Source: a virus. Taken from it: a DNA stretch of 64,000 nt. Position 1 is the first letter of the stretch. The number at the start of each line of letters is the position of its first letter. Both the position numbers and the translations under genes were made by a program. Of the stretch, positions 4,555 through 51,309 are shown one piece after another. The notes under the pieces were generated by a model. That model did not search any database and had not been told where the DNA came from. It saw nothing but the letters and a program-made list of their open reading frames with translations. The DNA lies in IMG/VR virus record IMGVR_UViG_3300044568_004391, positions 87,985 through 151,984 of that record. One strand, given 5' to 3'.

Positions 4555-5158
4555 ATTATATTTATTTGTAAATAATAATTCTATGACACAACGACTAATA
4601 TTAACAGAAGAAGAAAAAAGAAACATCCAAAAGATGTATGGTATGATTAATGAACAACCTGATGACCAATTAAAAATGCTTCAAAATGAAGGTTATATTG
4701 ATGTAACAGATTCTGTTCATAAAGGCGAATATGTATTAGAAATTCCTGATGGTAAAAACTATAAAGTCAAAGGTGGTGGTTATCAATTTAAGCTTTTAAC
4801 AGATGATAATAAAGAAACAGGTTATCTTTTTTTATCTGAAAATGGAGTAAGAACACCTTCTATGGAGAAAGGTCCATTCTATGTTGAGGATAATGGAAAA
4901 ATGATTCGTCTTAATCAAGAATTTATAGGGATTTTAGGTCAAAATGGAAGGATTTTGTATAACCAAAAATTAAATCAAGTTAAAATTGAAAGATAAATTT
5001 TTATAAACTATATATTTAAGAACCTCTCCAATACGGGGAGGTTTTTTTGTTTTCAATTATATTTATTTGTAAACAATAATTCTATGGCACAACGACTAAT
5101 ATTAACAGAAGAAGAAAAGAGAAACATCCAAAAGATGTATGGTATGATTAATGAACAA
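4555..5158 (+). repeat. 103-bp direct repeat (4555-4657 and 5056-5158) covering the promoter motif plus the first 25 codons
   Basis: 3 mismatches by direct comparison; downstream coding sequences are unrelated. Confidence 0.9.
4583..4996 (+). CDS. E-leader protein (MTQRLILTEEEKRNIQKMYGMINEQ) with a variable domain
   Basis: ORF, TATTTAT at 4559, terminator downstream. Confidence 0.8.
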   Translation: MTQRLILTEEEKRNIQKMYGMINEQPDDQLKMLQNEGYIDVTDSVHKGEYVLEIPDGKNYKVKGGGYQFKLLTDDNKETGYLFLSENGVRTPSMEKGPFYVEDNGKMIRLNQEFIGILGQNGRILYNQKLNQVKIER

Positions 5159-5485
5159 GAAGAGACCAATTTCGATAAAAATTACTTTATGTCTAAAAAG
5201 ACGGGAACTGTAACCTTCGGTTCTCAAGCCATTCCATTAGAAGTTGACGGGATTAAGGTTTCTGACTACAAGACCCAATGGAAAAGAAATTTCAAAATAG
5301 AGAATATAGGGGGTAGAGGATTTCAACCTGGGGTTTTCACATGGACATACGGAGAGGAAGTTCCAACGGGAGTTATGGGTTATAGTACTGATTCTGATGT
5401 ACGTACATCAGAACCAGGTATATCAATAAAAGATAGTGCAAATAAAGAAGTTGGCACACTTATTTTTGAGTTACCTTGGGATTAA
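5084..5485 (+). CDS. E-leader protein with a different variable domain
   Basis: Same 25-aa leader as 4583. Confidence 0.8.
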   Translation: MAQRLILTEEEKRNIQKMYGMINEQEETNFDKNYFMSKKTGTVTFGSQAIPLEVDGIKVSDYKTQWKRNFKIENIGGRGFQPGVFTWTYGEEVPTGVMGYSTDSDVRTSEPGISIKDSANKEVGTLIFELPWD

Positions 5486-5575
5486 ACCCCCTCCCTTATT
5501 GGTGAGGGGTTTTTTGTTTTTTATTATATTTATATATAAAATAAAATAAAATAAAATAATTTTAAAATCAATAAA

Positions 5576-5986
5576 ATGAGAAAAGTTAGATTGACGGAAT
5601 CAGAATTGGTCCGTATCATAGAAAGAATTGTAAAAGAAGAATCCTTAACGGGAGGTAGATCAAAACCAGAATTCAAAGGTAGATTGGCTAAATCCAAAAA
5701 AGATTTTGGGATGGGATGGAGAGATGAATATGACAGCCCATCTGAAGGACCAGGTGAGAGATCAGGTTCGATTGTGAGTTATGAAGATTTTATGCGTTTC
5801 GCAGAAGACCACCCCGATTTGGCTGAGTTTTATTTTGGTTGGGCCGGTGATGAATCAGGTGAAGTTTTTGACAAATATGGTGGTGTAGATCTATTTAATC
5901 CTGAAGAAGATATGGCAAATCTTGAAGAGATGAAAAGAAAAGTCAGAGTTATGGAAAATAAACTCAAAAGGAAAATGGGAAGATAA
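5576..5986 (+). CDS. E-leader protein (MRKVRLTESELVRIIERIVKEE)
   Basis: ORF; TATTTAT at 5527. Confidence 0.8.
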   Translation: MRKVRLTESELVRIIERIVKEESLTGGRSKPEFKGRLAKSKKDFGMGWRDEYDSPSEGPGERSGSIVSYEDFMRFAEDHPDLAEFYFGWAGDESGEVFDKYGGVDLFNPEEDMANLEEMKRKVRVMENKLKRKMGR

Positions 5987-5990
5987 CAAA

Positions 5991-6398
5991 ATGAAAAAAG
6001 TTGTAAGATTAACGGAAAATGATTTGATTAGATTAACCAAGAGAGTTCTACTCGAATCGAAAGCTCAAGAGGCGGTAGACACCGCCTTTGAAAAATTTGA
6101 ATCAGGTCAAAAACCTCCAGCAGGTATGGTTCAAAATGTAAAAAAATGTTTGGAGAATACACCTCTCAGAAATATTGTTTTGGCTGGGGGAGATGTTGCT
6201 CAGTTAATTTTGAGTGTATTAGCATTGACGTTACTTGTCATGGTTGGTTGGGAAGCAGCATTGGTTGTGGCGGGGATTCATGGGGCACTTAGTATTTTAG
6301 AACACACATATAAAATAAAAGGTGTAAATGTTTTTGCAAAATCAGAAAAAGATATAAAATTTTTCGTTAATTGTTTACAATCAAAAGGGGTAATTTAA
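5991..6398 (+). CDS. E-leader protein with a hydrophobic hairpin
   Basis: MKKVVRLTENDLIRLTKRVLLES; long hydrophobic segment. Confidence 0.8.
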   Translation: MKKVVRLTENDLIRLTKRVLLESKAQEAVDTAFEKFESGQKPPAGMVQNVKKCLENTPLRNIVLAGGDVAQLILSVLALTLLVMVGWEAALVVAGIHGALSILEHTYKIKGVNVFAKSEKDIKFFVNCLQSKGVI

Positions 6399-6546
6399 TA
6401 ATCGATATTTCTTCTTTTATTGGAATAAAAAATAAAATTATTTCGGGGACCGAATTGGTCCCCTTTTTTTTGAAATCTAAAATTTCTGGAAAATTTTTTG
6501 ATATTATGGGGGTTTATTCTTATGTTTATAATATAGACCCAAAATT

Positions 6547-6975
6547 ATGAAACATATCATTTCCGTTATTTGTTTTATGATCTTCTCTCTTGTGGGAAGT
6601 TCACAAACCATCACAAAGGCTGCCATCTATAGATCCACCAATCAGAAGATTTCCATTTCAGAATTTGCTGGCGGTGCCATCATCTTCTATTATCAAAATC
6701 CTGACTATACTCACATCGTTGACCTCCTTCATTTCGGGGTTCAAAACAAGACCGAAGCTCTTGCTCTTATGGATGAATGTCTTCATGTTTTGAGTATGGA
6801 AAAAACCGGACAAGACCAACATATCTATCATAACTATAAATTCCATCAGATCATCCGGTATGGGTTCAATCAAAACTCCGTCATCATCGGCCGGTTATAT
6901 CTGAATGCCAAAACCATCGAGGAAATCAAACTTGCTCTTCTGAACTATTCTTATTCATCAATCAAAAATCAATAA
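6547..6975 (+). CDS. secreted hypothetical protein
   Basis: Signal peptide ending GSS-Q. Confidence 0.75.
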   Translation: MKHIISVICFMIFSLVGSSQTITKAAIYRSTNQKISISEFAGGAIIFYYQNPDYTHIVDLLHFGVQNKTEALALMDECLHVLSMEKTGQDQHIYHNYKFHQIIRYGFNQNSVIIGRLYLNAKTIEEIKLALLNYSYSSIKNQ

Positions 6976-6976
6976 T

Positions 6977-7585
6977 ATGAAAAAAGTTATTATCTTAATT
7001 TGTTTGGGACTTATTTCCTTGACCTCTTCTTCCCAACAATATATCGATATATTTCATTCAAGTCGCGGACCACATGTGATTAGCGCTTGTGAAGATGGAA
7101 AAGGTGGTTATGTTCATTTCTATCAAATGGAACCTATGGGGTTTTCAAGATCTACTCTTCTCTTTTTTGAAAATAAATCTGAAGACGATTCTCTGTCCGA
7201 TGATTTTTATGAGGTGATTGACTTAACAAAAAAAATGTTAAAAAGAAAATATGTTGAAAAAAGAAAGGAAACTCCCGACACAACTCTTGTCAATTTCACC
7301 ACAAATATGAAATGTGCCTTTCTTCATAAGGATGTTTGGTATTTTGATCGTGATGTAAACCTTTCTTATGAACTCACCAGAGAACCTTGGGGTATGGAAA
7401 TAAAGGTCGAAACTGATCGTCTCTGCGATGATAAAAACCCAAATATCTGCGTCCAAGGTGGAAGGTTTGTATTTTTGGATTATGAAGATTTTTATCTCTT
7501 CCCACTTTATTATTTGGATTGGGATGATGTGAATAGAATTCTAAACGAAAAAAAATCTCTTGAGCAATATTTTATTGATCAATAA
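6977..7585 (+). CDS. secreted hypothetical protein
   Basis: Signal peptide ending SSS-Q. Confidence 0.75.
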   Translation: MKKVIILICLGLISLTSSSQQYIDIFHSSRGPHVISACEDGKGGYVHFYQMEPMGFSRSTLLFFENKSEDDSLSDDFYEVIDLTKKMLKRKYVEKRKETPDTTLVNFTTNMKCAFLHKDVWYFDRDVNLSYELTREPWGMEIKVETDRLCDDKNPNICVQGGRFVFLDYEDFYLFPLYYLDWDDVNRILNEKKSLEQYFIDQ

Positions 7586-7615
7586 TTTTTATTGTTTCCC
7601 TATGTATTTATTAAT

Positions 7616-8044
7616 ATGGGAAAAAGAATTGTAATTTCAGAAAATGAGAAAGTAAAAATTCGTAAGTTATATGGATTGTCTGAAGGACTTGATTTTGAGC
7701 AGATCATGCTTGGGATCGGGTCCATCATTTTTTTAAGAAAGTTTTTTCAAGGACTTCGTTCTGATCCCAAATTCAAAGCATTATTTCTTCGTGATGAAGA
7801 TGTGGAACAGAATATCAAACACTTGGATAAGGTGATGGAAAGATATTTGAATGGTCTCGATGAGTATTACAGTGATATTGAAGAATATGACCGGGTGGAA
7901 ATTCGTGATATATATGAAAACGATATTAAACCTTTGCTCAGAGAAAAGAAACTTGTGGATATGGAAGATATTGTGAATTATTTGAGTTACAAACTAGATT
8001 ATCTTAACAAACAAAAGGAAAAGAAATTCTTTTCCAAAGATTGA
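7616..8044 (+). CDS. E-leader protein (MGKRIVISENEKVKIRKLYGLSE)
   Basis: Start reassigned; TATTTAT at 7605. Confidence 0.75.
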   Translation: MGKRIVISENEKVKIRKLYGLSEGLDFEQIMLGIGSIIFLRKFFQGLRSDPKFKALFLRDEDVEQNIKHLDKVMERYLNGLDEYYSDIEEYDRVEIRDIYENDIKPLLREKKLVDMEDIVNYLSYKLDYLNKQKEKKFFSKD

Positions 8045-8090
8045 CCCCCCTTTTAATATGGGTGTAGTATATTTATCATAAAAAAATACA

Positions 8091-8438
8091 ATGAAAAAAA
8101 TAGTTAGACTTACAGAATCCGATCTCGTTAAAATTATCGAACGAGTAATCGAAGAGGGAAAGACAGATAAAGGAGTTAAGGAAAAGGATGTTGACGTAAA
8201 AATTGAAACATTTCAAGATTCCATAAAAAACCATCTCAAATCAAAAGATAATGTTACGGTTAAAAAGGTGGGGGATGATTTTGAAATTCATTCTGATGGT
8301 GATCATATCGGTCAGGTTATGTTTAGGAAAGAAGGGATTACAGTAAAAAAAGTTGGAAACAAGTTTGGAAAGAAATTCGATTTCAACGAACTCGGGAATA
8401 TAAAAAAGGAAATTAATCGGATAATAAAAGAAGATTGA
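8091..8438 (+). CDS. E-leader protein (MKKIVRLTESDLVKIIERVIEE)
   Basis: ORF; TATTTAT at 8070; terminator downstream. Confidence 0.8.
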   Translation: MKKIVRLTESDLVKIIERVIEEGKTDKGVKEKDVDVKIETFQDSIKNHLKSKDNVTVKKVGDDFEIHSDGDHIGQVMFRKEGITVKKVGNKFGKKFDFNELGNIKKEINRIIKED

Positions 8439-8503
8439 ATATTTTAAACCCTCCGCCTTCAAGGAGGGTTTTTTATTTGAATTATTTTTCTTATATTTGT
8501 TTT

Positions 8504-8995
8504 ATGAAATACATCCTCCTTATTTTTGGTCTTTTGGTTTCATCACAGGTGATGAGCCAAACTTTCTACTCTGATTTCATCAGTGACCCAATCGATGGTG
8601 AACATGGTTTTGTTGGAAATGGAGATATTCAATTCCATCAATTTTCTGACACACCCGACTCTGTGGTGGTTTTCGGAATCACCGATTCATATTTCTGTGA
8701 AGATTCATTTTTGTATGTTGAATTTGCTGTTATGGTTAATGGTGTATGGAACAATCATGAACTTATGCTTTATCCATATAACACATCCAAATGGGCATAC
8801 CTCGATTTTCATATCAACGACCCACTTATTCAGGATCTCATTAGGGGATCCAAATATGTTTATAAGTATATCGATGCTCACTGTAGTATTGAACGAGGTG
8901 AGGGATCACTTGCTGGTGTGACCGCCGGATTTAAGAAAGCCGGTATTCCAATCAGATGGAAAGATGGTGTAAATCACGGGTTGAGTGCTTGGTGA
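8504..8995 (+). CDS. secreted hypothetical protein
   Basis: MKYILLIFGLLVSSQVMS-Q; TATATTTG at 8492-8499. Confidence 0.75.
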   Translation: MKYILLIFGLLVSSQVMSQTFYSDFISDPIDGEHGFVGNGDIQFHQFSDTPDSVVVFGITDSYFCEDSFLYVEFAVMVNGVWNNHELMLYPYNTSKWAYLDFHINDPLIQDLIRGSKYVYKYIDAHCSIERGEGSLAGVTAGFKKAGIPIRWKDGVNHGLSAW

Positions 8996-9072
8996 TAAAC
9001 AATTTAAATTTTGAACCCTCCCCCTTCAAGGAGGGTTTTTTTATTTTCGATATATTTATAAAGAAAAATAAG

Positions 9073-10488
9073 ATGTATATTTCTGAATCTGAAAAGAGGC
9101 ATATCTTAAAACTCTATAATCTATTGATTGAAGATACAAGACCTCTGCAAAAACTCAGAGAATGTAAAATTTCGAGTGACGGTCGATATATTGTCTATGA
9201 TAATCAAGTTTACCTAACATCTACGGGGGAACTTGCTCCAATATCTGAAGCGTGGTCATTAAGTGACATTCTTCACACAGGTGCGGACTTAGTATCTATG
9301 GGTATGGATTTTGTTATTCCTGGATCAGGTGCTGTAATCGACGTTCTCAATGCATTGAGTTATATAATCGAGGCTCAATTCGTTGATCCCGAAAAGAAAG
9401 ATTCTCTTTATATAATGGCGGCAATAACTTTCGGTTTCGTCATCCTTCCTGGTCCACTACAAGCCGTGGCGGTTCCGTTGAAAAGAGCGGTTAAGACAGG
9501 TGTTGGATTGGCAAGTAAAACCGTAGTTGCAGGGTTGAAAATAATTGGGAAATCATTGGATGTTTTACTCGTTAAGATTCCTGAGTATATTGGTCAGGCT
9601 CTAAAATCCAAAATGGGTAAAAGATTATTGGGAAAATGGGGTGATCGATTGAGTGGTTTTATAAGTGGGTTTACTTCAAGAATAAAGACTATATTAAGAT
9701 CAATTGGATCTGCACCAACTGCCACCAGGGCTGGTACTCAAACTGCAACTAGAAAATTACTTCAAACGCTCTCTAAAGCTCAACCACAATTTCTCAAAAA
9801 TTTCATGTCCAAATTACCTAAGATTAATAAGGGTAAGATGGTCTTAAGAAAGTTGGGTTTTGCACAAGGTCGATCCTATAGATACGTAGGTAAGTCAGGT
9901 AAAGCGTCAACCGCAACGATAGTGGGTATTACAGATTCTACGGTAAGAATTTCTTTTAAAACAGGATCCAAAGTTGCTGAATCTACAGTTCCTATAAATA
10001 CATTTATTTCACGAGCTGTCGGAGCTCCTTGGATAAGAAGGGGTGCAGGAGTCACAGTTCCATTTTTCATAAAGAGATTTGCGGATTGCTTGACTTCAGA
10101 TGGAAGTGTGGATGAAGCGGCGTTGGAAAAATTATCCGATATAAATCCTGATGTGACATCAGAAGAGTCATTGAATTACTTAAGGGAAGAAGTTGCAAGT
10201 TACGAAGGGGAAACTGGTCAATATACAGAAAACGAAAATGCCCAATTATTTCAAGAAGCTTTGAAAAAATTGGAATATGATCTTGGTAATTTTGGGCCCA
10301 ATAAGGATGGTATCGATGGTAAATTTGGACCAAAGACCAAATCGGCTTTGGAAAAATTCCAAACAAAAAACGGTTTAGAGGATTCTCTGGGTAAAATGGA
10401 CAGAATAACGGCAAATACTCTTGCCGATAGATTACCGGATGATGATGAAACTGCAATTAAATTAAGAAAATTAGTTTACCCGGATTAG
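9073..10488 (+). CDS. E-leader protein with a pre-toxin-TG-like hydrophobic domain and C-terminal peptidoglycan-binding domain
   Basis: HTGADLVSMGMDFVIPGSGAVIDVLNALSY; DGKFGPKTKSALEKFQ (PG_binding_1-like). Confidence 0.7.
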   Translation: MYISESEKRHILKLYNLLIEDTRPLQKLRECKISSDGRYIVYDNQVYLTSTGELAPISEAWSLSDILHTGADLVSMGMDFVIPGSGAVIDVLNALSYIIEAQFVDPEKKDSLYIMAAITFGFVILPGPLQAVAVPLKRAVKTGVGLASKTVVAGLKIIGKSLDVLLVKIPEYIGQALKSKMGKRLLGKWGDRLSGFISGFTSRIKTILRSIGSAPTATRAGTQTATRKLLQTLSKAQPQFLKNFMSKLPKINKGKMVLRKLGFAQGRSYRYVGKSGKASTATIVGITDSTVRISFKTGSKVAESTVPINTFISRAVGAPWIRRGAGVTVPFFIKRFADCLTSDGSVDEAALEKLSDINPDVTSEESLNYLREEVASYEGETGQYTENENAQLFQEALKKLEYDLGNFGPNKDGIDGKFGPKTKSALEKFQTKNGLEDSLGKMDRITANTLADRLPDDDETAIKLRKLVYPD

Positions 10489-10499
10489 AATTTATCATT

Positions 10500-11348
10500 A
10501 TGAAGTATGACGAAAAAAGAATAAGAAAAGTATTATCGGCTTTTAAATCATATTATGGTGAGGATAAGCCTAAACCAAGATATGGTAGTTGGTATGATTT
10601 TGATATACCTAATGTTTTTAAAAGTTTGGGTTATCCCGAAAAGTTTTTGCAAGCTCTGTTGAAACATAATATTGAATTTTATGAGATATGGGACGATCCT
10701 GAATATAAAATTGTCATACCTAAAGAAAAAACATTTGATGTTGTGATTGACTGGATGGGAAGACAATATTTAACTAAAAGTTATGGTCATAGAATTGATG
10801 CGTTTGATAAAGATGATATTGAAGATATGATTTCAAACTGTAACCCGTGTTATGATGAAGGTGATGAAATGGACGTTGATTATGGTGATTCAGATGGAGA
10901 GTGGGAAATAACGTCTTTTGAACAAATAACGGAATCCGATTACCAACGAATTAAAAGTAAACTTTTGATAAAAGAATCCGATAAGGAAAATTCAAAAGAA
11001 GAAAAATTGATGAGATTTTTGAATATATATATGGACCAAATTTTGGACGGAGGTGTTTGGTATGATGATGAGAATTATTGGTTCATAAATCCTGAAACCA
11101 AAGAATGGATTTTTGAATATCGTAAAAAAACGAAGTATGTGTTTTTTTATAGAAAATATTTTGAGATTATACAAGACCTTACAGGAATGAAATCTCCAAT
11201 TACAACCGAATTGAAAAAAATACTCACTAAATGGGTGTCAAAGAAATTTGGTTTTAATGTAGAAGATGTTATACCTTATTATAGTGAAGAAAGGGCTACG
11301 GTGAGAGATGTATTACAAAAAAATAATAGGTGGGACGAGATGAATTAA
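10500..11348 (+). CDS. two-domain hypothetical protein; N-domain paralogous to 37195-37857
   Basis: Shared IP.K...Y...D.YDK and EG..D...DS motifs; internal ITES/IKES junction. Confidence 0.75.
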   Translation: MKYDEKRIRKVLSAFKSYYGEDKPKPRYGSWYDFDIPNVFKSLGYPEKFLQALLKHNIEFYEIWDDPEYKIVIPKEKTFDVVIDWMGRQYLTKSYGHRIDAFDKDDIEDMISNCNPCYDEGDEMDVDYGDSDGEWEITSFEQITESDYQRIKSKLLIKESDKENSKEEKLMRFLNIYMDQILDGGVWYDDENYWFINPETKEWIFEYRKKTKYVFFYRKYFEIIQDLTGMKSPITTELKKILTKWVSKKFGFNVEDVIPYYSEERATVRDVLQKNNRWDEMN

Positions 11349-11361: not shown

Positions 11362-12048
11362 TTAGTGGGTTTTTTTTTGGATTATAAAAAACAAAATACC
11401 TGAAACAAAACCCCCAAGATGTGCGTAATCTCCTGATCCTATGTAGTGAGAAAATTCAGGTTCGGTAAAAAAAACTGTGGAAATCATTTCAAATAGGACA
11501 TACCCAATGAAAAGATTTATAAGTATTTTCCGAATTTCCAAGAAGTTAAAAAGAAGATACATAATGGCCATTGAAAAAATAATACCTGAAAAACCTTTTG
11601 TATTACCAACAGAATATAGGTAATTTTCTACTTGAATTTGTTGGTCAAAAGTTAAATTTTCTTCTTGGTAGTCGTAAGGATCAATACCCTCCTCCATAAG
11701 ATATTTCGAAGAACTCATGTATTTGGTATGTTGGTGGTATTGAGCAAAAGATAAGGATACAATTCCTGCCATCACCATAGATAAGATGTAGCTTCTTGTT
11801 CCCAACTTATTTTCCAAGAAAGGTCCCACCAAAAACAAAACCAACAAATTTCCAAAGATATGGAGTGGGTCGTATAGGTTATGAATGAATAAGGAGGTGA
11901 TTGGTTGAAACCATTTAAAATCTTCGGTAAAAGTCCCATATAACCCAAATTGGACACAAAGATCCAAGTTAAAAATGATGGAGATCAGATGAATCACCAC
12001 CATAAGAATAATTAAACTTTTTGTGACGATTGGAACTTTGAAATTCAT
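11362..12048 (-). CDS. rhomboid-family intramembrane serine protease
   Basis: Multi-TM; HIFGN, GFSG and AHLGG motifs; Bacteroidota promoter at 12053-12084. Confidence 0.85.
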   Translation of the reverse strand: MNFKVPIVTKSLIILMVVIHLISIIFNLDLCVQFGLYGTFTEDFKWFQPITSLFIHNLYDPLHIFGNLLVLFLVGPFLENKLGTRSYILSMVMAGIVSLSFAQYHQHTKYMSSSKYLMEEGIDPYDYQEENLTFDQQIQVENYLYSVGNTKGFSGIIFSMAIMYLLFNFLEIRKILINLFIGYVLFEMISTVFFTEPEFSHYIGSGDYAHLGGFVSGILFFIIQKKTH

Positions 12049-16803: not shown

Positions 16804-17649
16804 TTAAACGAACAATACCTCTTCTTCCTTATGTTTTTCTTGTTGAAGAAGTTCATAAGCTCTTGCAAGTCTGGTCATACCGATTCCACCTCCGAATCTT
16901 GGGAAGAAGTTATGGGATAGGAATTCTTCAAGTTCTTTCTCCACTCTTTCTTGTCCGAACAATTCAAATAGTTTTTCACAATATCTTCCATCTTCAATTG
17001 AATAGAACATTTCTCTCATACCTTCAACATCACAAGATCTTTCAGCCGATCCAATTGTTTCTTGACCATAAAGGATGACATCAACCTTGTTGAAGATCTC
17101 ACCTTCTCTGTGTTTCATATTCCAAAATGGATTTGTTCTTCTTGGGAATAGTTCAAGAGAAACCACAGATCCTTTCTCTTGCCACATTCTTGTTTCATCT
17201 TCGTGTTCAATGATTGAAATACCACCATATTCTTCACATACTGAATCGTATGTCTCACGGATGGGTTGATCAAACCCAAGATATTCCAAAAGTTCTGCTT
17301 CCAATTGGATCATATCTTCAATAGTTCCTTTTGACTCAAACTCAAACATGGGAAAAATTAGAGAGTGTCTACCTTCAATAGGGGTTTTCTCTTCACGATA
17401 AGAAGTTGAAATACAGAATACCCCATCCCACTCAGGGTTTTTAAGAAGTTCATATTCCAACCACATCTGTCCTGTTTGTGGTAAGGGCCATTGTTCCCCA
17501 CAGTATTCAAAGGTTTTTACCGAATGAGGATTTTCACATGCCGCAAGAATTGACAAACGGGATTGAACTGGAACTTCAACAAAGTTTTTGTTTAGGAAAA
17601 ATGTTCTCATCTTTTGAACAAGTTCGTTGTAGGTTTTTGTGTTTTTCAT
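16804..17649 (-). CDS. catalytic-core-only Asp/Asn-tRNA-synthetase paralogue (AsnRS-derived asparagine synthetase-like)
   Basis: Class II motifs SYREE...RH..IFPMFEFE, ETIGSAER, GGGIGMTRL; 281 aa with no anticodon OB domain. Confidence 0.8.
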   Translation of the reverse strand: MKNTKTYNELVQKMRTFFLNKNFVEVPVQSRLSILAACENPHSVKTFEYCGEQWPLPQTGQMWLEYELLKNPEWDGVFCISTSYREEKTPIEGRHSLIFPMFEFESKGTIEDMIQLEAELLEYLGFDQPIRETYDSVCEEYGGISIIEHEDETRMWQEKGSVVSLELFPRRTNPFWNMKHREGEIFNKVDVILYGQETIGSAERSCDVEGMREMFYSIEDGRYCEKLFELFGQERVEKELEEFLSHNFFPRFGGGIGMTRLARAYELLQQEKHKEEEVLFV

Positions 17650-30896: not shown

Positions 30897-31063
30897 TTTC
30901 TTTGTAACAATAAAACCTCAATACCATAAGCGTAACCAGTGCCGAAATGAAAATTACCAGGAATGTTGTCATGTAAGTTTATTTTCTACAAATATAATCT
31001 AAATTTATTCAGAATCCAAATATTAATCAAAGAATTAATATATTTATAACAAAAAGATTTGTC

Positions 31064-31631: not shown

Positions 31632-33740
31632 ATGAAAAAAATATTTCTTGTATTTTTCTCTTTTATTTCTTTTATTGGTTTTTCGCAGTCAGATCAGTGT
31701 GGATTCGATCACATTAAGATGATGGGTATGTTTGATATTACCGAAAATCACGAAATAACGTATATTGGTAATAGAGATGAAGTTCACACAATTCCTGTTG
31801 TTTTTCACGTAATTCATTTGGGTGAAGATGAAGGTGTTGGTACAAATATTTCAGATGAACAGATTTTAGATGGATTGAGAATTATCAACGAAGACCTAAG
31901 AAAAATTCCAAATTCATGGGGTGATGGAATAGGTGTTGATGTTGAAATGGAACTTTGTTTGGCGTCGAGAGACCCTTTGGGAAATCCAACAAATGGAATT
32001 ACAAGACATGATGGTAATATATGGGTGGATTATTCTACAAATGGTATTTCATTCACACCAAACCAAGTAGGTGAACCTGAATTGAATATTAAAAATGCTA
32101 CAACATGGGATAGAACCAAATACCTGAATGTGTGGTTAGTTTCTGAAATTCAAGGAAATGACGGACTGTGGGGTACACAGGGATATGCTTACTATCCAAT
32201 CCCCAACAATCGTGACGGTATTGTTTTATTACACAATGTTATTGGTTCCTTTGGAAATGTCAAACCAACACACAATAGAAGTAGGACTTTTACTCATGAG
32301 TTTGGTCATTACTTAGGTTTGTACCACACATTTGAAAGTTATGAAGATTGTAGTTCTGCGGCTTCAGAAGTGGATTGTGTAACTCAAGGAGATAGAGTTT
32401 GTGATACACCACCCACCAAAGTGGGTTGGGGTTGTACACCGGCTTGTGTAATCACAAATTCACAATACCAAAACTATATGGATTATAGTGAACAAACTTG
32501 TAGAAACACATTTACTCAAGGACAAAAAGATAGAATGAGGGGTGGTGCAGGAATTATGAATGCTTGGAGAGTTTCTTTATTATCTAGCGATGGTTGTACA
32601 CCTGTCGAAGGAACCAATCTTTCTATTGAAAGTGGTACATATTACCAAAATTGTGGGTTTTCAGGGATCAAACCTGAAGTTAAAATTCAAAACTTGGGGT
32701 TAAATCCAATTCATCAATTTCAAGTAAGTGCAAGAATTGTTGGTACACCTTACTTTATTGTTAAAAGTTGGACATCTGAAAATCCAATAAACTTATTTGA
32801 CGTTGTCACAGTTACGTTCCCTATGGGATCTACAGATTACGGGACAGGAGAAATTATTTATCAAATTTTGGATCAAGATTCCTACATGACTGATAATACC
32901 CTTGAAATTATTTACGAATCATTACCATCGGAAGAATTAACGTTGATTTTGAATCCAGATTTTTTTGCGAACGAAACGACTTGGGAAATGGTAAATATTA
33001 ATGGTGATATAATTTGGGAGGGGGGTCCATATAGTACAGGTCCCGATAATCCAATTATCCATATCGATTGTGTCTCGAATGGATGTTATGACTTTACAGT
33101 ATATGATCAGTTTGGAGATGGATATGATTTCGGTGGGGATTTTGAGTTGATCAATTCATCAGGTGAAACATTAGCATACGGAGAGGATAATTTCGGTGAT
33201 GAGGTGACTTTTAACTTTTGTATAGATGTGCCATTTTTGGAACCCTGTAGTGATATTGGATATAATGGAATTTGTGACGATGATGAGATCGGATTAATTT
33301 GGGGTTGTTTAGATCCGTTGGCGTGTAATTATGATTTTTATGCGAACTTATCAAACGCATCTTGTATTTTTCCGAATGGTATTTACGATTGTTTTGGGAA
33401 TTGTTTGGTTGATTCAGATTACGATGGTGTTTGTGACCAATTAGAAATCTTGGGGTGTATAGATCCGATTTCCTGTAATTACGATGAAAATGCAACCGAA
33501 GAATCAGAGTGTCAATATCCAATCTTCGGATATTCTTGTGATGGTATACCGTTGACTTCATTGAATACTGTAACAGGTATTAGAGAACTAATTAATTCAA
33601 ATATCGTTGAAAAAATTATTCTATACGATATTCAGGGTAGAGAAATAAACCCTGATAAAATAACATCATCAGGTGTTTACCTAATTAATTTACACTTTAG
33701 GGATGGTACAATCAGAACTCACAAAGTTCATTTGAACTAA
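31632..33740 (+). CDS. secreted M43 (pappalysin/ulilysin-like) zinc metalloprotease with Cys-rich repeats and a probable T9SS type-A CTD
   Basis: GFS-Q signal; QCG Cys-switch; HEFGHYLGLYH; NYMDY Met-turn; YDIQGRE...GVYLI...KV. Confidence 0.85.
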   Translation: MKKIFLVFFSFISFIGFSQSDQCGFDHIKMMGMFDITENHEITYIGNRDEVHTIPVVFHVIHLGEDEGVGTNISDEQILDGLRIINEDLRKIPNSWGDGIGVDVEMELCLASRDPLGNPTNGITRHDGNIWVDYSTNGISFTPNQVGEPELNIKNATTWDRTKYLNVWLVSEIQGNDGLWGTQGYAYYPIPNNRDGIVLLHNVIGSFGNVKPTHNRSRTFTHEFGHYLGLYHTFESYEDCSSAASEVDCVTQGDRVCDTPPTKVGWGCTPACVITNSQYQNYMDYSEQTCRNTFTQGQKDRMRGGAGIMNAWRVSLLSSDGCTPVEGTNLSIESGTYYQNCGFSGIKPEVKIQNLGLNPIHQFQVSARIVGTPYFIVKSWTSENPINLFDVVTVTFPMGSTDYGTGEIIYQILDQDSYMTDNTLEIIYESLPSEELTLILNPDFFANETTWEMVNINGDIIWEGGPYSTGPDNPIIHIDCVSNGCYDFTVYDQFGDGYDFGGDFELINSSGETLAYGEDNFGDEVTFNFCIDVPFLEPCSDIGYNGICDDDEIGLIWGCLDPLACNYDFYANLSNASCIFPNGIYDCFGNCLVDSDYDGVCDQLEILGCIDPISCNYDENATEESECQYPIFGYSCDGIPLTSLNTVTGIRELINSNIVEKIILYDIQGREINPDKITSSGVYLINLHFRDGTIRTHKVHLN

Positions 33741-34751: not shown

Positions 34752-35059
34752 AAAACTTTCCCTTGTTGATTTTGTCAATCTTTTTGTTGTCCTCCTGTGC
34801 TGTTACATTGGAAGAAATGCAATCAGAACCAAATGATTGGACAATTCAACCTGCATTTGTTTTAGATTGGGATGGTCAAACACCGGTCAACAGGTGGTGT
34901 TCAGTTATCGAACTTAATAAATTGGACACAACAACGAATGGTGTTCCTTACATCATCAGAGAAGTTCTGGTTCAAGAAGGTGACAGCACTAAAAGAATTT
35001 TGGTGATCGAATCTCAGTTGGATGAAACCTATAAAATTACCAAAGAAATGTTTAGGTGA
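34748..35059 (+). CDS. lipoprotein
   Basis: LSS-C lipobox. Confidence 0.75.
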   Translation: MKNFPLLILSIFLLSSCAVTLEEMQSEPNDWTIQPAFVLDWDGQTPVNRWCSVIELNKLDTTTNGVPYIIREVLVQEGDSTKRILVIESQLDETYKITKEMFR

Positions 35060-37194
35060 GAATCATCTTATCTATATTATTTTTAATCTTAGGTGTAAAT
35101 TTATATTCCCAATGTGACGTTATTATCCAACCTGGGACACTCCAAAAGATAGATGTAAACCCTGGTGTTAAGTTCAGTTTCACAATAAAAAATAATGGAA
35201 CTACACCTTTTCAAAATGGGACATTCCATCTTTCTTTTGGGTGGTTGGATTCTCCAATGAATCCTCAATCTGTTTGGAATATGAATTTAAGTACTCCTAT
35301 TCAACCGAATGGTACACTACAAGTAACGTCACCTGTTTTCGATATTCCGGTTCCACAAAACGCAACAGAGTGGCCTTTTTGGGATGAAACCACAGGACCC
35401 AACGGTTGGCCAAACCCTAACTATGGTCCTTTGATGGTTTATTTAAATGGATGTTTTATAAATGCTCAAACCATAAATTCATTCCTCCCTTTGAGTGATG
35501 ATTGTCCAAATATAAATCAGGATCAATTTTGTGATTGTAATTTTGAGCTCTATGATTTCAGGACAGAACCCGAAATGCAATTAGATGTTGTTGTCCATAG
35601 TGATTATAATTGTTTTCCTGTAGGTTTTCCTCCTGGCCCCAATAGTTTTACAATTAACAATCCTGGTATATATAACATGACGATCGGTATAAACAGTTTG
35701 TTAGAAGACAACTGTGGACCATCTCCTGATCAAGGACATACTTATCTTCATTTTACATCATCTTATTTACCTGATTATGTTTTGGGAGATACGATCACTC
35801 TCGATTTAGACCAAGCATCAAATTATTCATTAATAACATGTCTTCAAGAATCTTATAATCAAGGTAATTTTGATAATTGTTATGAGGTAGTTTTGTGGCA
35901 AATAAATAACAGTCTGAGTTTGATTTCACCAAACACATTCGAAGTAACAGTTGGTGACAATATAATTCGTGTGGATGAAAATTGTCAGACGGTTGTTGAT
36001 GTTACTGACTTATCTATTGATTCCTTTTCTTACGACATAATAGGGTGTGATGTAGGTTCGCCATATGCTGCTATGAACATCACACTATCCAACGAAGGTA
36101 ATACAACTATAACCAATTTCTGTTTGAATTTGGACATTCTTCCTGATGGTATACCTGGTGAACAATATTGTTTTTCTAATTTAAATATTTTACCTGGTCA
36201 AAGTTATGTCGTTGAAGTCAACGGAGGTTCATTATCAAATGGTGTTACTTCTATCTCAATTGAAACACCGAATGACGTAATTGTAACGAATAATACCTTC
36301 GTAACTATTATTGATTTACCTTGTTATGGTTGTACGATAAGTTCAGCAATAAACTACGATCCTTTCGCAACGGTTGATGACGGATCTTGTATTATGCCCG
36401 TTCCAGGTTGTTTGGATCCTTTGGCGAATAATTATAATCCAAATGCAACGGTTGACGATGGTTCTTGTACTTATGATGTTCTTGGTTGTACCGATCCTTT
36501 AGCGAACAACTTCAATCCTGATGCAAATACAGATGACGGATCTTGCTTATATGATGTCTTTGGATGTACTGATCCATCGGCAAATAATTATAACCCTAAC
36601 GCAACTGTTGACGATGGTTCTTGTACTTACGACCCAATTTTGATTTTCGGATGTACTGACCCATTAGCAAATAACTATGATCCAAATGCCAATACTGATG
36701 ATGGATCATGTAATTATGATATTTTTGGTTGTACGGATCCCGAAGCAAATAACTACAACCCAAATGCGAACATAGAAGATGGATCTTGTACATACGATCC
36801 TGAAATTATATTTGGTTGTACCGATCCAACGGCCCTTAACTTTGATCCATTTGCAAACTCTGACGATGGGACTTGTATTTATGAAATTGATATTTGTGAG
36901 GAAGCGGATTTACATACATTCGTACCAAATGTTATAACACCAAACAATGACGGATTAAACGATGTTTGGAGAGTGGTTACTCAGTCAGACTGTTGGAGAA
37001 CTTGGAAAACTCAAATCTATAACAGATGGGGTAGTTTGATCTGGGAATCTGAAGACCCCGATGCCGTGTGGAACGCAAGTAATAGTGGAAGTGTCTACTT
37101 TGTTTCCGATGGAATTTATGTGTATACTATTACAGGGGTCGCTTGGAATAACAAACCAATTCAAAAATCAGGTTACGTTACAATAATGAGGTAA
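35056..37194 (+). CDS. secreted protein with Ig-like domains, 7 Cys-rich repeats and a T9SS type-B (gliding-motility/CHU_C) CTD
   Basis: VPNVITPNNDGLNDVW...IYNRWG...DGIYVY...GYVTIMR. Confidence 0.85.
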   Translation: MRIILSILFLILGVNLYSQCDVIIQPGTLQKIDVNPGVKFSFTIKNNGTTPFQNGTFHLSFGWLDSPMNPQSVWNMNLSTPIQPNGTLQVTSPVFDIPVPQNATEWPFWDETTGPNGWPNPNYGPLMVYLNGCFINAQTINSFLPLSDDCPNINQDQFCDCNFELYDFRTEPEMQLDVVVHSDYNCFPVGFPPGPNSFTINNPGIYNMTIGINSLLEDNCGPSPDQGHTYLHFTSSYLPDYVLGDTITLDLDQASNYSLITCLQESYNQGNFDNCYEVVLWQINNSLSLISPNTFEVTVGDNIIRVDENCQTVVDVTDLSIDSFSYDIIGCDVGSPYAAMNITLSNEGNTTITNFCLNLDILPDGIPGEQYCFSNLNILPGQSYVVEVNGGSLSNGVTSISIETPNDVIVTNNTFVTIIDLPCYGCTISSAINYDPFATVDDGSCIMPVPGCLDPLANNYNPNATVDDGSCTYDVLGCTDPLANNFNPDANTDDGSCLYDVFGCTDPSANNYNPNATVDDGSCTYDPILIFGCTDPLANNYDPNANTDDGSCNYDIFGCTDPEANNYNPNANIEDGSCTYDPEIIFGCTDPTALNFDPFANSDDGTCIYEIDICEEADLHTFVPNVITPNNDGLNDVWRVVTQSDCWRTWKTQIYNRWGSLIWESEDPDAVWNASNSGSVYFVSDGIYVYTITGVAWNNKPIQKSGYVTIMR
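36328..36882 (+). repeat. 7 tandem repeats of 26-29 aa (GCTDP.A.NY.P.A..DDGSC)
   Basis: Read from the translation. Confidence 0.9.
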
Positions 37195-42422: not shown

Positions 42423-43016
42423 ATGAATATTTTATCTGAAGCGGTCACTGACCAACCAGTTCGTCAAGTTGTTAAGGACATCATTAAGATGGTGAAAACT
42501 CAAGTGAGTAGAGAATATTATTTACCTGAAGAAGTTTCGGAAAATTATATCCCCGAATATAAATTCCGTCAATTACCATTTGGTTTTGATGTAATTCTTG
42601 ATTTTACTATTGAAGACGATATTGAATATTTTACAAATGCTGATCTGTTGGGTGATGACACCATCGGTGTTTTAATCAAGATAAATAAAAAGGATTATCC
42701 ATCGATAATATATACATTAATTTCGGATTTGAATGATCTTATTGCTCACGAGTTAGAACACATCTATCAGAACTATGGATATAGAGACGTGAGTTTGGAA
42801 AAATATCCTGAATATTCACAAACAACAGGAAAAGATTATTACAAACACCCCATTGAAGTTCCCGCTCAGATCAAAGGATTTCAAAGACAAGCTAGGGTCA
42901 CAGGAAAACCTATTGAGGAATTGATAAGAAATTATTTTGAAAAGAATAAAAAGAGATATGAACTATCGGACGAGGACGTGGAGGATATTATTTCTTATCT
43001 TCTTTCGAAGATTTAA
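42423..43016 (+). CDS. HExxH zincin-like protein
   Basis: AHELEH..Q and YY..P.E.PA. Confidence 0.55.
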   Translation: MNILSEAVTDQPVRQVVKDIIKMVKTQVSREYYLPEEVSENYIPEYKFRQLPFGFDVILDFTIEDDIEYFTNADLLGDDTIGVLIKINKKDYPSIIYTLISDLNDLIAHELEHIYQNYGYRDVSLEKYPEYSQTTGKDYYKHPIEVPAQIKGFQRQARVTGKPIEELIRNYFEKNKKRYELSDEDVEDIISYLLSKI

Positions 43017-43626
43017 GAATATTCGAAAAGAATTCTTTTACCAAATCTCCACCTTTTTCAAAAGAAAACCACAAAAGAATTGCTGCAAATATTTTGAAAA
43101 CATCGTTGGTTGACATCTCTTGTTCTTGAATCATATTTGTCAACACGGACATCAACGGAACAAGAGCGGAAAACTTGATTATATTGGAATAGTTTTTAAC
43201 TCCAATTCCAAATTTAGTAAAGAAAGATTCAATCTTTAAGTTTCTCTTTCCCACAAATTCTTCACCGGCTTTTAGTTCATCTTCAAGACCTTTTTCCACA
43301 ATTGAATCGTAAATACCTTTTTTATGGTCTCTTCTTTCAAAGAAAATTGAACTCAAAAGAGAAATAACCAAGAGTGTAATATCTTTTGAATCAAGTTCAG
43401 GATATCTAAATTCATAAAATTCTGTAAATATTTTGCTAAGTGGTGGGATGGCAGCCCCGAATGTCAAAAGAAACTTCAAATCAACACCTAATTCCACTTC
43501 CTTTTCTTTGATAAAGTCTTTTCCATCTTCATATAGATCCTCGAGATATTTTTTTACAGGGGTCACTTTGTTCTCTGACTCCAATATAATTTTTCTTACC
43601 TGAAGATTTTTGCTCTCTAATATCAT
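42988..43626 (-). CDS. membrane protein with E-leader
   Basis: MILES...IILESE; hydrophobic helices. Confidence 0.7.
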   Translation of the reverse strand: MILESKNLQVRKIILESENKVTPVKKYLEDLYEDGKDFIKEKEVELGVDLKFLLTFGAAIPPLSKIFTEFYEFRYPELDSKDITLLVISLLSSIFFERRDHKKGIYDSIVEKGLEDELKAGEEFVGKRNLKIESFFTKFGIGVKNYSNIIKFSALVPLMSVLTNMIQEQEMSTNDVFKIFAAILLWFSFEKGGDLVKEFFSNILKSSKEDKK

Positions 43627-43657
43627 TTGACAATATATTTATAAAATAAATATTACC

Positions 43658-44182
43658 ATGAGAGGATATTCAACAATGACCGATGAAGAAAGACAATCAA
43701 TTCTTTCTCAACACAAAACATTTTATAACGGATACCAAGTACAAAACGTTCCATCATCGTACCAACCTTTAGAGGAAAAAAGTTATGCCAACGATATGGG
43801 AGGTATAACCGTCAACAATAAAGGTGAGGTTTCTTCTTATAAGAACTATGGAATCAACGAAAATTATCAGTTAAATGAATATGATTTTGAAGATGAGGAA
43901 CCCGTTGACCTATACGACGATATGGAATATTCCGAACTTATGTCAAGCTTGGAAAAAATGCTTGATGAGGTGGGATATGAAGATGAAGATGAATTTGATT
44001 ATGTTGAATCTGAAGTTGCCGAAAAATACAAAATAGAAGAAAGAGTTTGTCCTACTTGTGGTCTTACAGAAGAAAAATGTGGGTGTTCCTACGAGAGCAA
44101 AGTCGATGAAGAAATCAAAGAATCTTTCGAAAATCAGAAGTCAAAGATTCATGAAATGATGAAAAGGATGAAGATTGGATGA
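43658..44182 (+). CDS. acidic protein with leader (MTDEERQSIL) and repeated x-x-E sites
   Basis: INE, LNE, IEE and IKE sites; CxxC; TATTTAT at 43636. Confidence 0.7.
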   Translation: MRGYSTMTDEERQSILSQHKTFYNGYQVQNVPSSYQPLEEKSYANDMGGITVNNKGEVSSYKNYGINENYQLNEYDFEDEEPVDLYDDMEYSELMSSLEKMLDEVGYEDEDEFDYVESEVAEKYKIEERVCPTCGLTEEKCGCSYESKVDEEIKESFENQKSKIHEMMKRMKIG

Positions 44183-44916
44183 AAAAACTTTTGCGTAAAA
44201 TATTGTTGGAGTTAGAAATACCGAATCCTGTTTATGGTGCATCGAATTCTACTACGATCAGAAGTCGTTATGGTATGAGAAAACATCCTGTAACAGGGAA
44301 AAATAAAATGCATTATGGTATTGATATACCTGTAAAATGTGGTACAAAATTAAAATCACCTGACAACGGAAGAATTACAGAGGCCGGTTTCAAAGAAGAT
44401 GGTTGTGGAGGTAGGATCAGAATTGATCACGGTATGTATTCGACCAGATATTGTCATTTGAAAGAAATTTTTGTAAAGACAGGTGATTGGGTAAATCAAA
44501 ATGATGAGATTGCCAGTACAGGTGGAGAAAAAAACACCAAAGGTGCTGGATTATCAACAGGTTGTCATTTACATATGGAAGTCAAAAGGAATGATCAAAA
44601 TATTGATCCAGAAACAGTTGTTGATTTGTCAAAAAATCCAAAAGAATTTGGAGATGAAAAATTGAAAAAGGGTTATAGGGGTTCTTCGATTGGGACTTTA
44701 CAGTGTTTCTTAAAACATTCTGGGGTGGATAGTAATTTAGAAAAAACAAATTTACTTGACGATGACACGATGCAAGCCATCAAGAAATTTCAGTCTGAAG
44801 TAGGAATGATCGAAACTGGTGAGGTCTCAAATGAGTTAATAATAGAAATTAGAGATTATATTAAGAAGTTAGACAAAGAAACTAAAAACAACATTAAAGA
44901 TTGTTATAGTAATTAA
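44179..44916 (+). CDS. M23 peptidoglycan endopeptidase with a PG-binding domain
   Basis: H.GID, TGCHLHME; TMQAIKKFQ. Confidence 0.88.
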   Translation: MKKLLRKILLELEIPNPVYGASNSTTIRSRYGMRKHPVTGKNKMHYGIDIPVKCGTKLKSPDNGRITEAGFKEDGCGGRIRIDHGMYSTRYCHLKEIFVKTGDWVNQNDEIASTGGEKNTKGAGLSTGCHLHMEVKRNDQNIDPETVVDLSKNPKEFGDEKLKKGYRGSSIGTLQCFLKHSGVDSNLEKTNLLDDDTMQAIKKFQSEVGMIETGEVSNELIIEIRDYIKKLDKETKNNIKDCYSN

Positions 44917-45533
44917 TTAATTCTTCTATCCATAAATTTTGGTGATTCTGAATCTTTTTGAGAAAGAATTAAATCAGTATCCTGTAGGAATAAATCAAAA
45001 ACTTCTTTGATGGTTGTTTTATTGTCCGATACGTGTCTAATAATTTCATCGAAGGGGGTAATTGAACCCTCATTTTCTTTTTTATAAAGATTCCCACACT
45101 TGTAGTGAAAAATTGTGTCGTCCTCTAAAGATAAAAATCCGTGTGCGAAATATGGGGGAACAAAAAGAGAAAACCCACTCTTATCATCAAGTTCAAAATA
45201 TTCAAACTTACCAAAGGTGTGGGAGTCTTCCCGTAAATCAACCACAAAATCAATTACTCGACCCTTCAAGACCCTAACTAACTTCGCCTGTGACCAATCC
45301 CCAACTTGATAGTGTAAACCTCTGAAAACCCCTTCTTTTGAATAGGAAATATTGTCTTGAATAAAATACGTTTTAATTAATGATTCATCGGTATTTTGTG
45401 TGAATTTATTTATATTTTTTTTATCTGAATATGAAATTTCATCCCAAATTTGTAAAAATTTACCTCTTTCATCTTCATAAATGTTTTCTTTTATTAAAAA
45501 AACATTGGTCATGGTCGTTTCTTTTATTGTCAT
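44913..45533 (-). CDS. rmlC: dTDP-4-dehydrorhamnose 3,5-epimerase
   Basis: DERG.F, QDN.S.S..GV.RGLHYQ, AHGF. Confidence 0.9.
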   Translation of the reverse strand: MTIKETTMTNVFLIKENIYEDERGKFLQIWDEISYSDKKNINKFTQNTDESLIKTYFIQDNISYSKEGVFRGLHYQVGDWSQAKLVRVLKGRVIDFVVDLREDSHTFGKFEYFELDDKSGFSLFVPPYFAHGFLSLEDDTIFHYKCGNLYKKENEGSITPFDEIIRHVSDNKTTIKEVFDLFLQDTDLILSQKDSESPKFMDRRIN

Positions 45534-45632
45534 TTTTGAATATTTTACTACTAATTTAGTTTAAAAAATGGTTTTTCATAAAAATAAAGATATTTCTTTT
45601 ATATAAAAATAAATAAGAATTTAATTAATCAT

Positions 45633-45947
45633 ATGGAAATTTTAGAAATATACCATTATGAAGTGAATGAACAATTAAAAACTGTTGAAATCACTTTCAG
45701 GTTGACTTCAGATTCTGATGATGAAAGTAGAGTTGATACATTTGAATTTTCTATATTAAACGAATATGGTATACAGATTGGTGATGAGATAGAAGATTTT
45801 GTGTTTGAATCTGAAGAATATGCCGATGAATTTGACGATGACGAATCTGAAGATTGGATCATGTTGGACGAGGATGAATTGATTTCATTTCTAAATGAAT
45901 ATTACACAATTAATCCAAAAAAACTACCCGAAAAAACTTTTTTCTGA
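45633..45947 (+). CDS. small, highly acidic protein
   Basis: Asp/Glu-rich, 104 aa. Confidence 0.7.
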   Translation: MEILEIYHYEVNEQLKTVEITFRLTSDSDDESRVDTFEFSILNEYGIQIGDEIEDFVFESEEYADEFDDDESEDWIMLDEDELISFLNEYYTINPKKLPEKTFF

Positions 45948-45958
45948 TATTTATCAGT

Positions 45959-46441: not shown

Positions 46442-46485
46442 AAACCTTTTATTAATTTGACTTTATCGGATATTTATCTGGTAAG

Positions 46486-51291: not shown

Positions 51292-51309
51292 TCAAAAATC
51301 ATAAAAAAA

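Follow-up and report, generated by a model that had tools for sequence, protein, structure and literature searches.

A phage protein joining a new N-terminal domain family to a peptidoglycan-binding module: candidate ejected head cargo of T4-type phages

We analysed a stretch of 64,000 nucleotides of viral DNA (hereafter the window; G+C content about 33%), comprising bases 87985-151984 of the 151,984-bp IMG/VR virus record IMGVR_UViG_3300044568_004391, the completeness of which is rated 52% by CheckV. The subject of this report is an open reading frame (ORF) on the plus strand of the window, at positions 9073-10488, which encodes a protein of 471 amino acids (aa; P0001). An initial annotation, made by reading the sequence, had placed this ORF correctly and had described in its product a leader, a glycine-rich segment, a long basic region and a C-terminal peptidoglycan-binding domain. 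All four are present: the leader MYISESEKRHILKLYNLLIE, the glycine-rich segment HTGADLVSMGMDFVIPGSGAVIDVLNALSY...AAITFGFVILPG (aa 68-127), the basic region with 20 Lys and Arg residues (K+R) against 3 Asp and Glu residues (D+E) at aa 136-236, and a PG_binding_1 domain (PF01471) at the C-terminus. A small beta-barrel (aa 237-345) and an invariant I/L-x-E motif at aa 57-59 had been overlooked. A longer frame is open from position 8956, and in the alignment the starts of the homologues match the position of 9073. The glycine-rich segment is not a chance pattern but the best-conserved part of the protein, and it forms the core of a new domain family, for which Pfam, PHROGs and NCBIfam have no model and no fold could be recognised.

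With a core profile built from 15 sequences (alignment A3, 88 positions), 130 clusters, defined at 50% identity, were recovered from 1.84 billion cluster representatives at E <= 0.001; of these, 92 remained at 1e-10 and 29 at 1e-30. The proteins range in length from 97 to 1154 aa, and many are short (250-300 aa). In 121 of 124 representatives the start of the domain falls no later than residue 140, the median start position being 55.5. Conservation among 125 representatives is highest at D72 (0.96), D90 and Y97 (0.95 each), G84 (0.94) and H68 (0.90), followed by D79 and G86 (0.87 each) and by P83 and E100 (0.82 each). Residues D65, H68, D72, S75 and D79 are spaced along one face of a helix and D90, N93, Y97 and E100 along one face of the next, with P-G-S-G-A between the two. 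Mean pairwise identity reaches 0.73 in the core and 0.62 in the peptidoglycan-binding domain, and is lower in the leader and the linker (Table 1). Of the 8000 candidates scored in a word-indexed protein search, 247 reached E <= 0.001; among the matches listed (120 of 247) all carry PF01471, and they fall into two length classes of about 470 aa and about 620 aa. In the longer homologues (P0007, P0012, P0024) an additional domain of some 140 aa (residues ~237-373) separates the basic helices from the beta-barrel; it contains the motif FYKSSG.NVGTTGK.AGEWF.IPGF and is without family assignment. PG_binding_1 is present by Pfam in all 25 close homologues; because only 15 of 105 divergent representatives carry it, the N-terminal domain is the constant part of the family and the wall anchor marks one large subfamily.

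The family looks phage-only, as judged from sequence and model searches. Its nearest ESM-Atlas clusters are 96-100% viral, and a search with two peptide patterns only, across the genomes of 185,579 prokaryote species, gave 26 pattern matches and no confirmed relative. Among 50,697 public phage records, tblastn found no relative of P0001, P0180 or P0237; another member, P0216, matched one uncultured 636-kb phage record. A BFVD structure search with the full-length model returned a single uncharacterised homologue, from an uncultured phage (E 4.2e-19). DUF4112 was considered as an assignment for the family and dropped, with 2 of 105 members matching at about 1e-3 and none among ten chosen members.

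The initial annotation had presented as established a resemblance of the glycine-rich segment to the PT-TG pre-toxin domain (PF14449), under which the protein would be a phage relative of bacterial polymorphic toxins. By definition, a PT-TG domain is followed by a toxin domain at the C-terminus, and the bacterial polymorphic-toxin locus that encodes it includes an immunity gene. The resemblance was not supported in our searches: PF14449 (Pfam cut-off 23.5 bits) matched none of the 25 close members at E <= 10 and none of the 105 divergent ones at E <= 0.01, and a six-frame search of the whole 152-kb record gave nothing at E <= 10, the Bacillus subtilis positive control scoring over the cut-off. 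A word-indexed search with the domain profile produced 14 proteins at E <= 10 from 1737 candidates, none of them with any Pfam domain. Profile comparison, which the annotation had itself proposed as a check, was carried out against reference domains from Bacillales genomes (match in 21 of 121), from which the pre-toxin segment only was excised; 23 of 28 translated segments were aligned (A7), L142 being excluded for a stop codon and L145, L146, L148 and L150 as near-duplicates, and all 23 are PT-TG domains by Pfam. The hhalign probability against these verified domains was 0.16% (E 0.36, 16 columns). What likeness there is lies in a short D-F-(V)-I-P-x-x-G string, D-F-V-I-P-G-S-G in the target against D-F-I-P-V-V-G in some PT-TG domains, and in an ESM-Atlas language-model feature match to a PT-TG cluster at rank 17 with 109 common features, the score of which (0.87) lies below 0.9 and counts as a lead only. 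Furthermore, the C-terminus is a wall anchor rather than a toxin, as had been stated, with no Pfam toxin family in the protein, and neither an immunity gene nor any conserved partner gene occurs across 29 related loci, also in line with the earlier description. The target thus differs from PT-TG in lacking profile similarity, a toxin domain, an immunity gene and, within the two-pattern search, bacterial relatives. Because the profile, six-frame, word-index and profile-profile tests were all negative, we conclude that the protein is not a PT-TG member, and an origin among polymorphic toxins is extremely improbable. This result corrects a tempting wrong annotation.

AlphaFold2 modelled aa 60-215 (127 sequences) as seven helices in one compact bundle, with a predicted local distance difference test (pLDDT) score of 88.2 and a predicted template modelling score of 0.82, the first helix being the least certain (pLDDT ~60). 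Foldseek found nothing in the PDB at E <= 0.001 for this model (template modelling scores ~0.2-0.3), nor for the model of the full-length protein. VIA, an exhaustive structure comparison, gave as its best match for aa 60-215 a designed six-helix barrel (Z 8.0, root-mean-square deviation (rmsd) 2.4, 84 residues), which is within noise for helical bundles, and the best hit of a PDB sequence search with the domain profile had E 0.92. As modelled, the bundle is without a convincing known fold. A four-copy self-association prediction for aa 60-215 scored 0.00 in a run without controls and counts neither way. The full-length model (pLDDT 76.5, 25 sequences) places in order the leader helix, a beta-hairpin (aa 39-48), helices spanning aa 63-212, the linker, the beta-barrel and the peptidoglycan-binding helices. 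By Kyte-Doolittle hydropathy only aa 114-132 (1.8) is clearly membrane-like, windows in aa 73-99 reaching 1.4-1.55, and no signal peptide is evident by eye. In its design, an apolar helix packed with acidic and basic amphipathic helices in a predicted bundle, the domain is reminiscent of the colicin, Bcl-2 and diphtheria-toxin T domains; this is a likeness of design only, none of these folds being among the matches listed (Foldseek E <= 0.001; VIA best 50).

Such a compact bundle, rather than a bare hairpin, could also belong to a new wall-acting enzyme or metal-binding catalytic domain, that is, to a lysin with a wall-binding module that acts from the virion or at lysis. The best-kept residues (H68, D72, D79, D90, Y97 and E100) are typical of catalytic or metal sites, and an enzyme domain followed by PG_binding_1 is the usual lysin layout; the PHROGs matches of the target are all to endolysin families, but they cover aa 372-452 only. 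The domain matched neither a hydrolase family of Pfam, PHROGs or NCBIfam nor, in Foldseek or VIA, a solved fold, a 25-residue apolar helix with P-G-P would be unusual in a soluble enzyme, most divergent members do without PG_binding_1, and the window already encodes an Amidase_2 and an M23 peptidase. We therefore regard an enzymatic function as quite unlikely.

The assignment of the C-terminus to PG_binding_1 is confirmed by both the profile match and its three-helix fold. It is the only Pfam domain found in the full-length protein, and the PHROGs and NCBIfam matches all run through this region. In a VIA comparison with ~48,000 solved chains the C-terminal domain superimposes on the N-domain of SleB (6tci) with Z 9.4 (rmsd 1.9, 70 residues, 30% identity) and on phiKZ gp144 with Z 8.9, the structural alignments to peptidoglycan-binding domains beginning at aa 370-376. 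The last 70-85 residues of the target are thus a true member of the module type that these two proteins exemplify for spore-cortex enzymes and phage lysins. The target differs from them in having no recognisable catalytic domain attached; the partner of its module is the new helical domain. Structural matches of the beta-barrel are weak: Foldseek reported the Tudor domain 2eqm with probability 1.0 over 46 columns, and VIA gave Z 4.6 for Tudor/SH3-like folds. The charge of the protein changes sharply along its length, K+R against D+E being 2/8 in aa 60-135, 20/3 in aa 136-236 and 19/4 in aa 237-345, before the acidic stretch that precedes the peptidoglycan-binding domain (Table 1).

The N-terminus of the target, M-Y-I-S-E-S-E-K-R-H-I-L-K-L-Y, falls in a class of N-terminal motifs shared by 9 of the 211 ORFs examined in the record; seven of the nine, the target included, stand in one row. 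This row (window 4583-10488, plus strand) has ten genes, and its leaders are of two related forms, LTESDL..II.RV and ITE(S/E)EK..I..LYG, on the genes starting at 4583, 5084, 5576, 5991, 7592 and 8091 and on the target; three genes for signal-peptide proteins (6547, 6977 and 8435) are interleaved, and the protein at 5991-6398 combines its leader with a helix of strong hydrophobicity (hydropathy 2.29). Across the family the 'xTESEK' leader type occurs in 27 of 123 representatives, and a third type, also borne by an ORF that the initial annotation had called copy 2, in 1 of 123. A T4-like motif, [YF]x[EDQ][WF] in the first 16 residues, is carried by 34 of the 123 (examples are M-K-H-L-M-L-Y-E-D-W and M-R-H-L-S-T-Y-Q-D-W), whereas in the rest of these proteins 12 of 2954 windows of sixteen residues contain it; the leaders in the T4 record read MKTYQEFIAEA (IPII, IPIII) and MKTFKEFTST...ITEA (IPI). 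Leaders are interchangeable within the family, and [LIVMF]-x-E directly before the domain is retained: it fills the column of I-S-E (aa 57-59) in all 25 aligned homologues, and in 152 of 220 family proteins it stands exactly 8 residues before His68. The preferred motif of the T4 protease is Leu/Ile-x-Glu. In the accessible text of PMC5694885, T4-family head proteases are described as cleaving after Glu at x-X-E motifs. The accessible text of PMC9958956 describes T4 internal proteins as loaded through a capsid-targeting sequence (CTS) and relieved of small N-terminal peptides by gp21, this processing being a head event, and IPI as injected.

The records that carry homologues are T4-type phages. 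Peptidase_S77, the family of the gp21 prohead protease, was found over the cut-off in all five large homologue-bearing records (148-321 kb, three of them rated complete) and in three of five further fragments, the two without a match being rated 22% and 36% complete; in total, eight of ten related records have it. The gp23 capsid protein is encoded in all three complete relatives, adjoining the protease gene. In the 636-kb record of an uncultured phage, which encodes a distant family member, the only protease match stayed below threshold (24.7 bits).

We favour the reading that the target is a cargo protein of a T4-type jumbo phage that is packaged in the head, trimmed by a protease and ejected to bind peptidoglycan and act on the inner membrane, and we assign it a probability of about 0.5. 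The protein would be loaded into the prohead by means of its N-terminal leader and trimmed by the gp21-type head protease of the phage after Glu59 (I-S-E | A), so that the mature protein would begin exactly at the conserved helical domain, two helices of which are striped with Asp, His, Tyr and Glu and the third of which is membrane-like. In the predicted soluble state the core would be wrapped by the basic amphipathic helices. At infection the protein would be expelled with the DNA, and in the periplasm PG_binding_1, perhaps together with the small beta-barrel, would hold it on the wall; the bundle would then open and its hydrophobic part enter the inner membrane from outside, either aiding the DNA to cross or disturbing the membrane. 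The acidic stripes might form a polar lining or a latch that responds to metal or pH, and the basic helices might bind DNA inside the head or, later, acidic lipids. Inferred in this scheme are packaging, trimming at Glu59, ejection, insertion into the membrane and any channel.

This ejected-cargo reading gains indirect support from the T4-CTS-like leaders of the family, the I/L-x-E at the domain border, the T4-type head genes of the relatives and the charge layout. We favour it moreover because of the near-uniform start of the domain in the first 140 residues, the row of leader genes and the apparent restriction of the family to phages. The closest known counterparts are the internal head proteins of T4 (IPI, IPII, IPIII and Alt). 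The relatives of the target are likewise T4-type with a gp21-type protease and gp23, the family has short swappable leaders with the MKTYQEF-like motif in the 34 representatives counted above, a hydrophobic-x-Glu (here a sequence motif only) follows the leader, a basic region is present and the genes lie away from the head cluster. Known T4 internal proteins differ in being small and soluble and in acting in the cytoplasm where their function is known, as the accessible text of PMC9958956 describes for IPI. The target has in addition a conserved acidic-hydrophobic bundle, a beta-barrel and a peptidoglycan anchor, a combination that points to the envelope. Its own leader type has no T4 counterpart, and no sequence homology to the T4 proteins was seen beyond the leader motif.

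A non-virion envelope protein made during infection, which would be inserted from the cytoplasm, grip the peptidoglycan and serve lysis timing, superinfection exclusion or envelope remodelling, has to be weighed against this reading. In phage T4, small membrane proteins act in lysis control and in exclusion, and the target has a hydrophobic helix (aa 114-132) preceded by two weaker ones and followed by a peptidoglycan-binding domain. Such a role needs no presence in the virion, for which the case is sequence-based only, and a gene for a phage-encoded rhomboid-family protease lies nearby (Table 1). The topology of the target argues against this role. By the positive-inside rule, the basic aa 136-236 after the hydrophobic helix mean that ordinary insertion would leave the C-terminus in the cytoplasm, the wrong side for the peptidoglycan-binding domain, which would have nothing to bind; entry from the periplasmic side, by way of the tail, removes this conflict. 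Furthermore, no signal peptide is seen, the swappable T4-CTS-like leaders and the I/L-x-E at the border would be left unexplained, and the link of the rhomboid to the target is unsupported, because no rhomboid homologue occurs near the homologue of the target in any of the 29 related loci. We consider an envelope protein of this kind unlikely.

Several observations weigh against packaging and ejection. The record of the target, 52% complete, gave no protease or capsid match, and in the complete relatives the homologue gene lies 55-85 kb from the head genes, although the T4 ip genes are likewise distant from theirs. The leader of the target is of the 'xTESEK' type, which has no counterpart in T4, and the enrichment of the T4-like leader motif is descriptive rather than blind, because the motif was picked by eye after both sets had been seen. 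The spacing count started from 244 proteins, close homologues included; the pattern used for the His motif failed in 24 of them, and among the 220 left, 15 have no [LIVMF]-x-E within 25 residues. Because [LIVMF]-x-E is also kept in the core helix at aa 98-100 (25 of 25) and at aa 370-372 (23 of 25), its conservation is no proof of a cleavage site; a cut at aa 372 would release the wall anchor. A single segment is clearly membrane-like by hydropathy and the model is a compact soluble bundle. Wall tethering does not extend to the family as a whole, as PG_binding_1 was matched in only 15 of the 105 divergent members.

The initial annotation had labelled the target copy 1 and a 423-aa ORF at window 48947-50218 copy 2. 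This label overstates the likeness. The second ORF likewise combines PG_binding_1 (E 3.3e-12) with a leader and a hydrophobic stretch rich in Gly and Pro, and as a paralogue of the N-terminal domain it was rejected: the family hidden Markov model scored it at E 5, BLASTP aligned only the peptidoglycan-binding region (E 0.7) and hhalign only 23 peptidoglycan-binding columns (probability 4.3%). At the level of sequence it is an analogue in layout, its N-terminal part being not detectably related. It belongs to a module at window 42988-52482 that is partly conserved in relatives, where the homologue of the target lies inside it. Besides the genes at 42988-43626 (minus strand), 43658-44182 and 45633-45947, this module contains an M23 peptidase with PG_binding_1 and a leader of its own (44179-44916), an 89-aa ORF (46486-46755) homologous to 81-84-aa ORFs in relatives, and, after the second ORF, two leader proteins at 50215-51291 (transmembrane helix near aa 251-269) and 51310-52482. 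In relatives the proteins encoded 3' of the homologue (L008:12551-14089, 512 aa; L030:11106-12314, 402 aa) have a leader and glycine-rich hydrophobic stretches, and L030:12329-13633 (434 aa) is weakly like the 423-aa protein (phmmer E 0.002). Several of the proteins that the module encodes may be directed to the membrane. A 701-aa helical ORF at 46755-48860 was considered as a tape measure and rejected, its match to TIGR02675 (E 0.021) being sub-threshold and no PDB relative being found.

This neighbourhood bears on whether the target might be an accessory of the tail or baseplate, for instance a partner of the tail tip or the tape measure, and not head cargo. Among the 29 related loci, 11 from two lineages have the homologue between homologues of the three genes named first in the module, and the module in the window also contains the M23 peptidase with PG_binding_1 and the 701-aa protein with its faint tape-measure match. 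That match lies below threshold, and in complete relatives the homologue is ~125 kb (G001) and ~60 kb (G002) from weak tail-tube matches. Processing by the T4 protease, moreover, is a head event in the accessible text of PMC9958956, and the head is thus a better fit for the leaders and the I/L-x-E sites. A tail function is in our view very unlikely.

The coordinates of the target, its parts and selected flanking features are collected in Table 1. The promoter-like motif upstream of the target has the form ATATTTATAAA(T/G)A and lies 13-23 nt before many start codons of the window, for instance at 9052-9064, 48927-48938, 43636-43646 and 31041-31051, related motifs being present upstream of 16 of 94 genes, both the target and the 423-aa ORF among them. 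Against an expectation of 8.3, the window contains 29 instances of the string TATAAATA, a count reached in none of 100 shuffles. The motif is possibly a T4-late-like promoter, as judged from its sequence. The gene directly downstream of the target (10500-11348) has no homologue near any relative in the 29 loci. The synthetase-like gene listed in Table 1 is conserved at 71-73% identity in 11 related loci, where it lies less than 10 kb from the homologue of the target. Farther along, the window encodes an M43 metallopeptidase-like protein (31632-33740) and a 712-aa protein (35056-37194) with a CHU_C type IX secretion signal at its end (E 5.9e-17), which points to a Bacteroidota host.

Table 1. 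Positions of the ORF under study, its protein segments and flanking features in the window.
Feature	Window position	Strand	Remarks
Terminator-like hairpin	9014-9047	+	8-bp G+C-rich stem then T run, 3' of the upstream gene; read from the sequence
Promoter-like A+T-rich motif ATATTTATAAAGA (predicted)	9052-9064	+	9-21 nt 5' of the ATG
ORF under study (P0001)	9073-10488	+	ATG at 9073, stop at 10486-10488, 471 aa
N-terminal leader helix, aa 1-20, type 'xTESEK..IL.LY'	9073-9132	+	Common to neighbouring genes; mean identity 0.38
Rest of putative propeptide, aa 23-59	9139-9249	+	Small beta-hairpin and I-S-E (aa 57-59 = 9241-9249)
Conserved core, aa 60-135	9250-9477	+	Two acidic/polar-striped helices joined by P-G-S-G-A, then a strongly hydrophobic helix with P-G-P, a helix-breaking sequence
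Basic amphipathic helices, aa 136-215	9478-9717	+	Pack with the core into the predicted seven-helix bundle; from charge and hydrophobic moment
Linker, aa 216-236	9718-9780	+	Poorly conserved, identity 0.21; pLDDT 35, disordered in the model (~aa 213-236)
Small beta-barrel, aa 237-345, SH3/Tudor-like, basic (predicted)	9781-10107	+	pLDDT ~90; strands at aa 268-307
Acidic stretch, aa 346-387, with second conserved L-x-E (aa 370-372)	10108-10233	+	2 K+R against 12 D+E
PG_binding_1 (PF01471), aa 388-450	10234-10422	+	Pfam E 3.2e-10, 40.5 bits against a cut-off of 23
Rhomboid-family intramembrane protease gene, phage-encoded	11362-12048	-	Pfam E 8e-12; second gene 3' of the ORF under study
Class II aminoacyl-tRNA-synthetase-like gene	16804-17649	-	tRNA-synt_2, E 2e-11

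If the protein is ejected as we favour, it is proposed to work in a manner like the ejection proteins of podophages (T7 gp14, gp15 and gp16; P22 gp7, gp20 and gp16). T7 gp16 has a wall-acting (transglycosylase) part. The podophage proteins are stored in the head, leave first and are rebuilt in the envelope as a path for the DNA, according to the accessible text of PMC8954989. No homology to T7 gp14 or gp16 was found by hhalign (probability 0.09% and 0.22%, respectively), and the T7 and P22 phages are short-tailed, unlike the T4-type relatives of the target. To our knowledge, the known ejected envelope proteins belong to short-tailed phages, and we know of no contractile-tailed T4-type phage that needs ejection proteins.

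The passage of the DNA of contractile-tailed phages across the inner membrane is, as far as we know, still poorly understood. We put forward tentatively, and as rather unlikely in its entirety, that T4-type jumbo and huge phages carry a widespread and apparently undescribed family of head proteins (no literature search aimed at it was made) that builds or primes this passage after ejection, head-protease trimming exposing at the new N-terminus an acidic-hydrophobic bundle of a protein anchored to peptidoglycan; among myoviruses it would be an independently evolved counterpart of the podophage ejectosome. Head cargo tagged with a CTS is a known kind of protein in T4-type phages; a wall-anchored, membrane-directed cargo protein would, if true, be new for contractile-tailed phages. 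If its members are packaged and ejected, the family provides a defined candidate for inner-membrane DNA crossing in uncultured T4-type jumbo phages, one that is widespread, with its 130 clusters, and that offers in H68, D72, D79, D90, Y97 and E100 clear residues to mutate.

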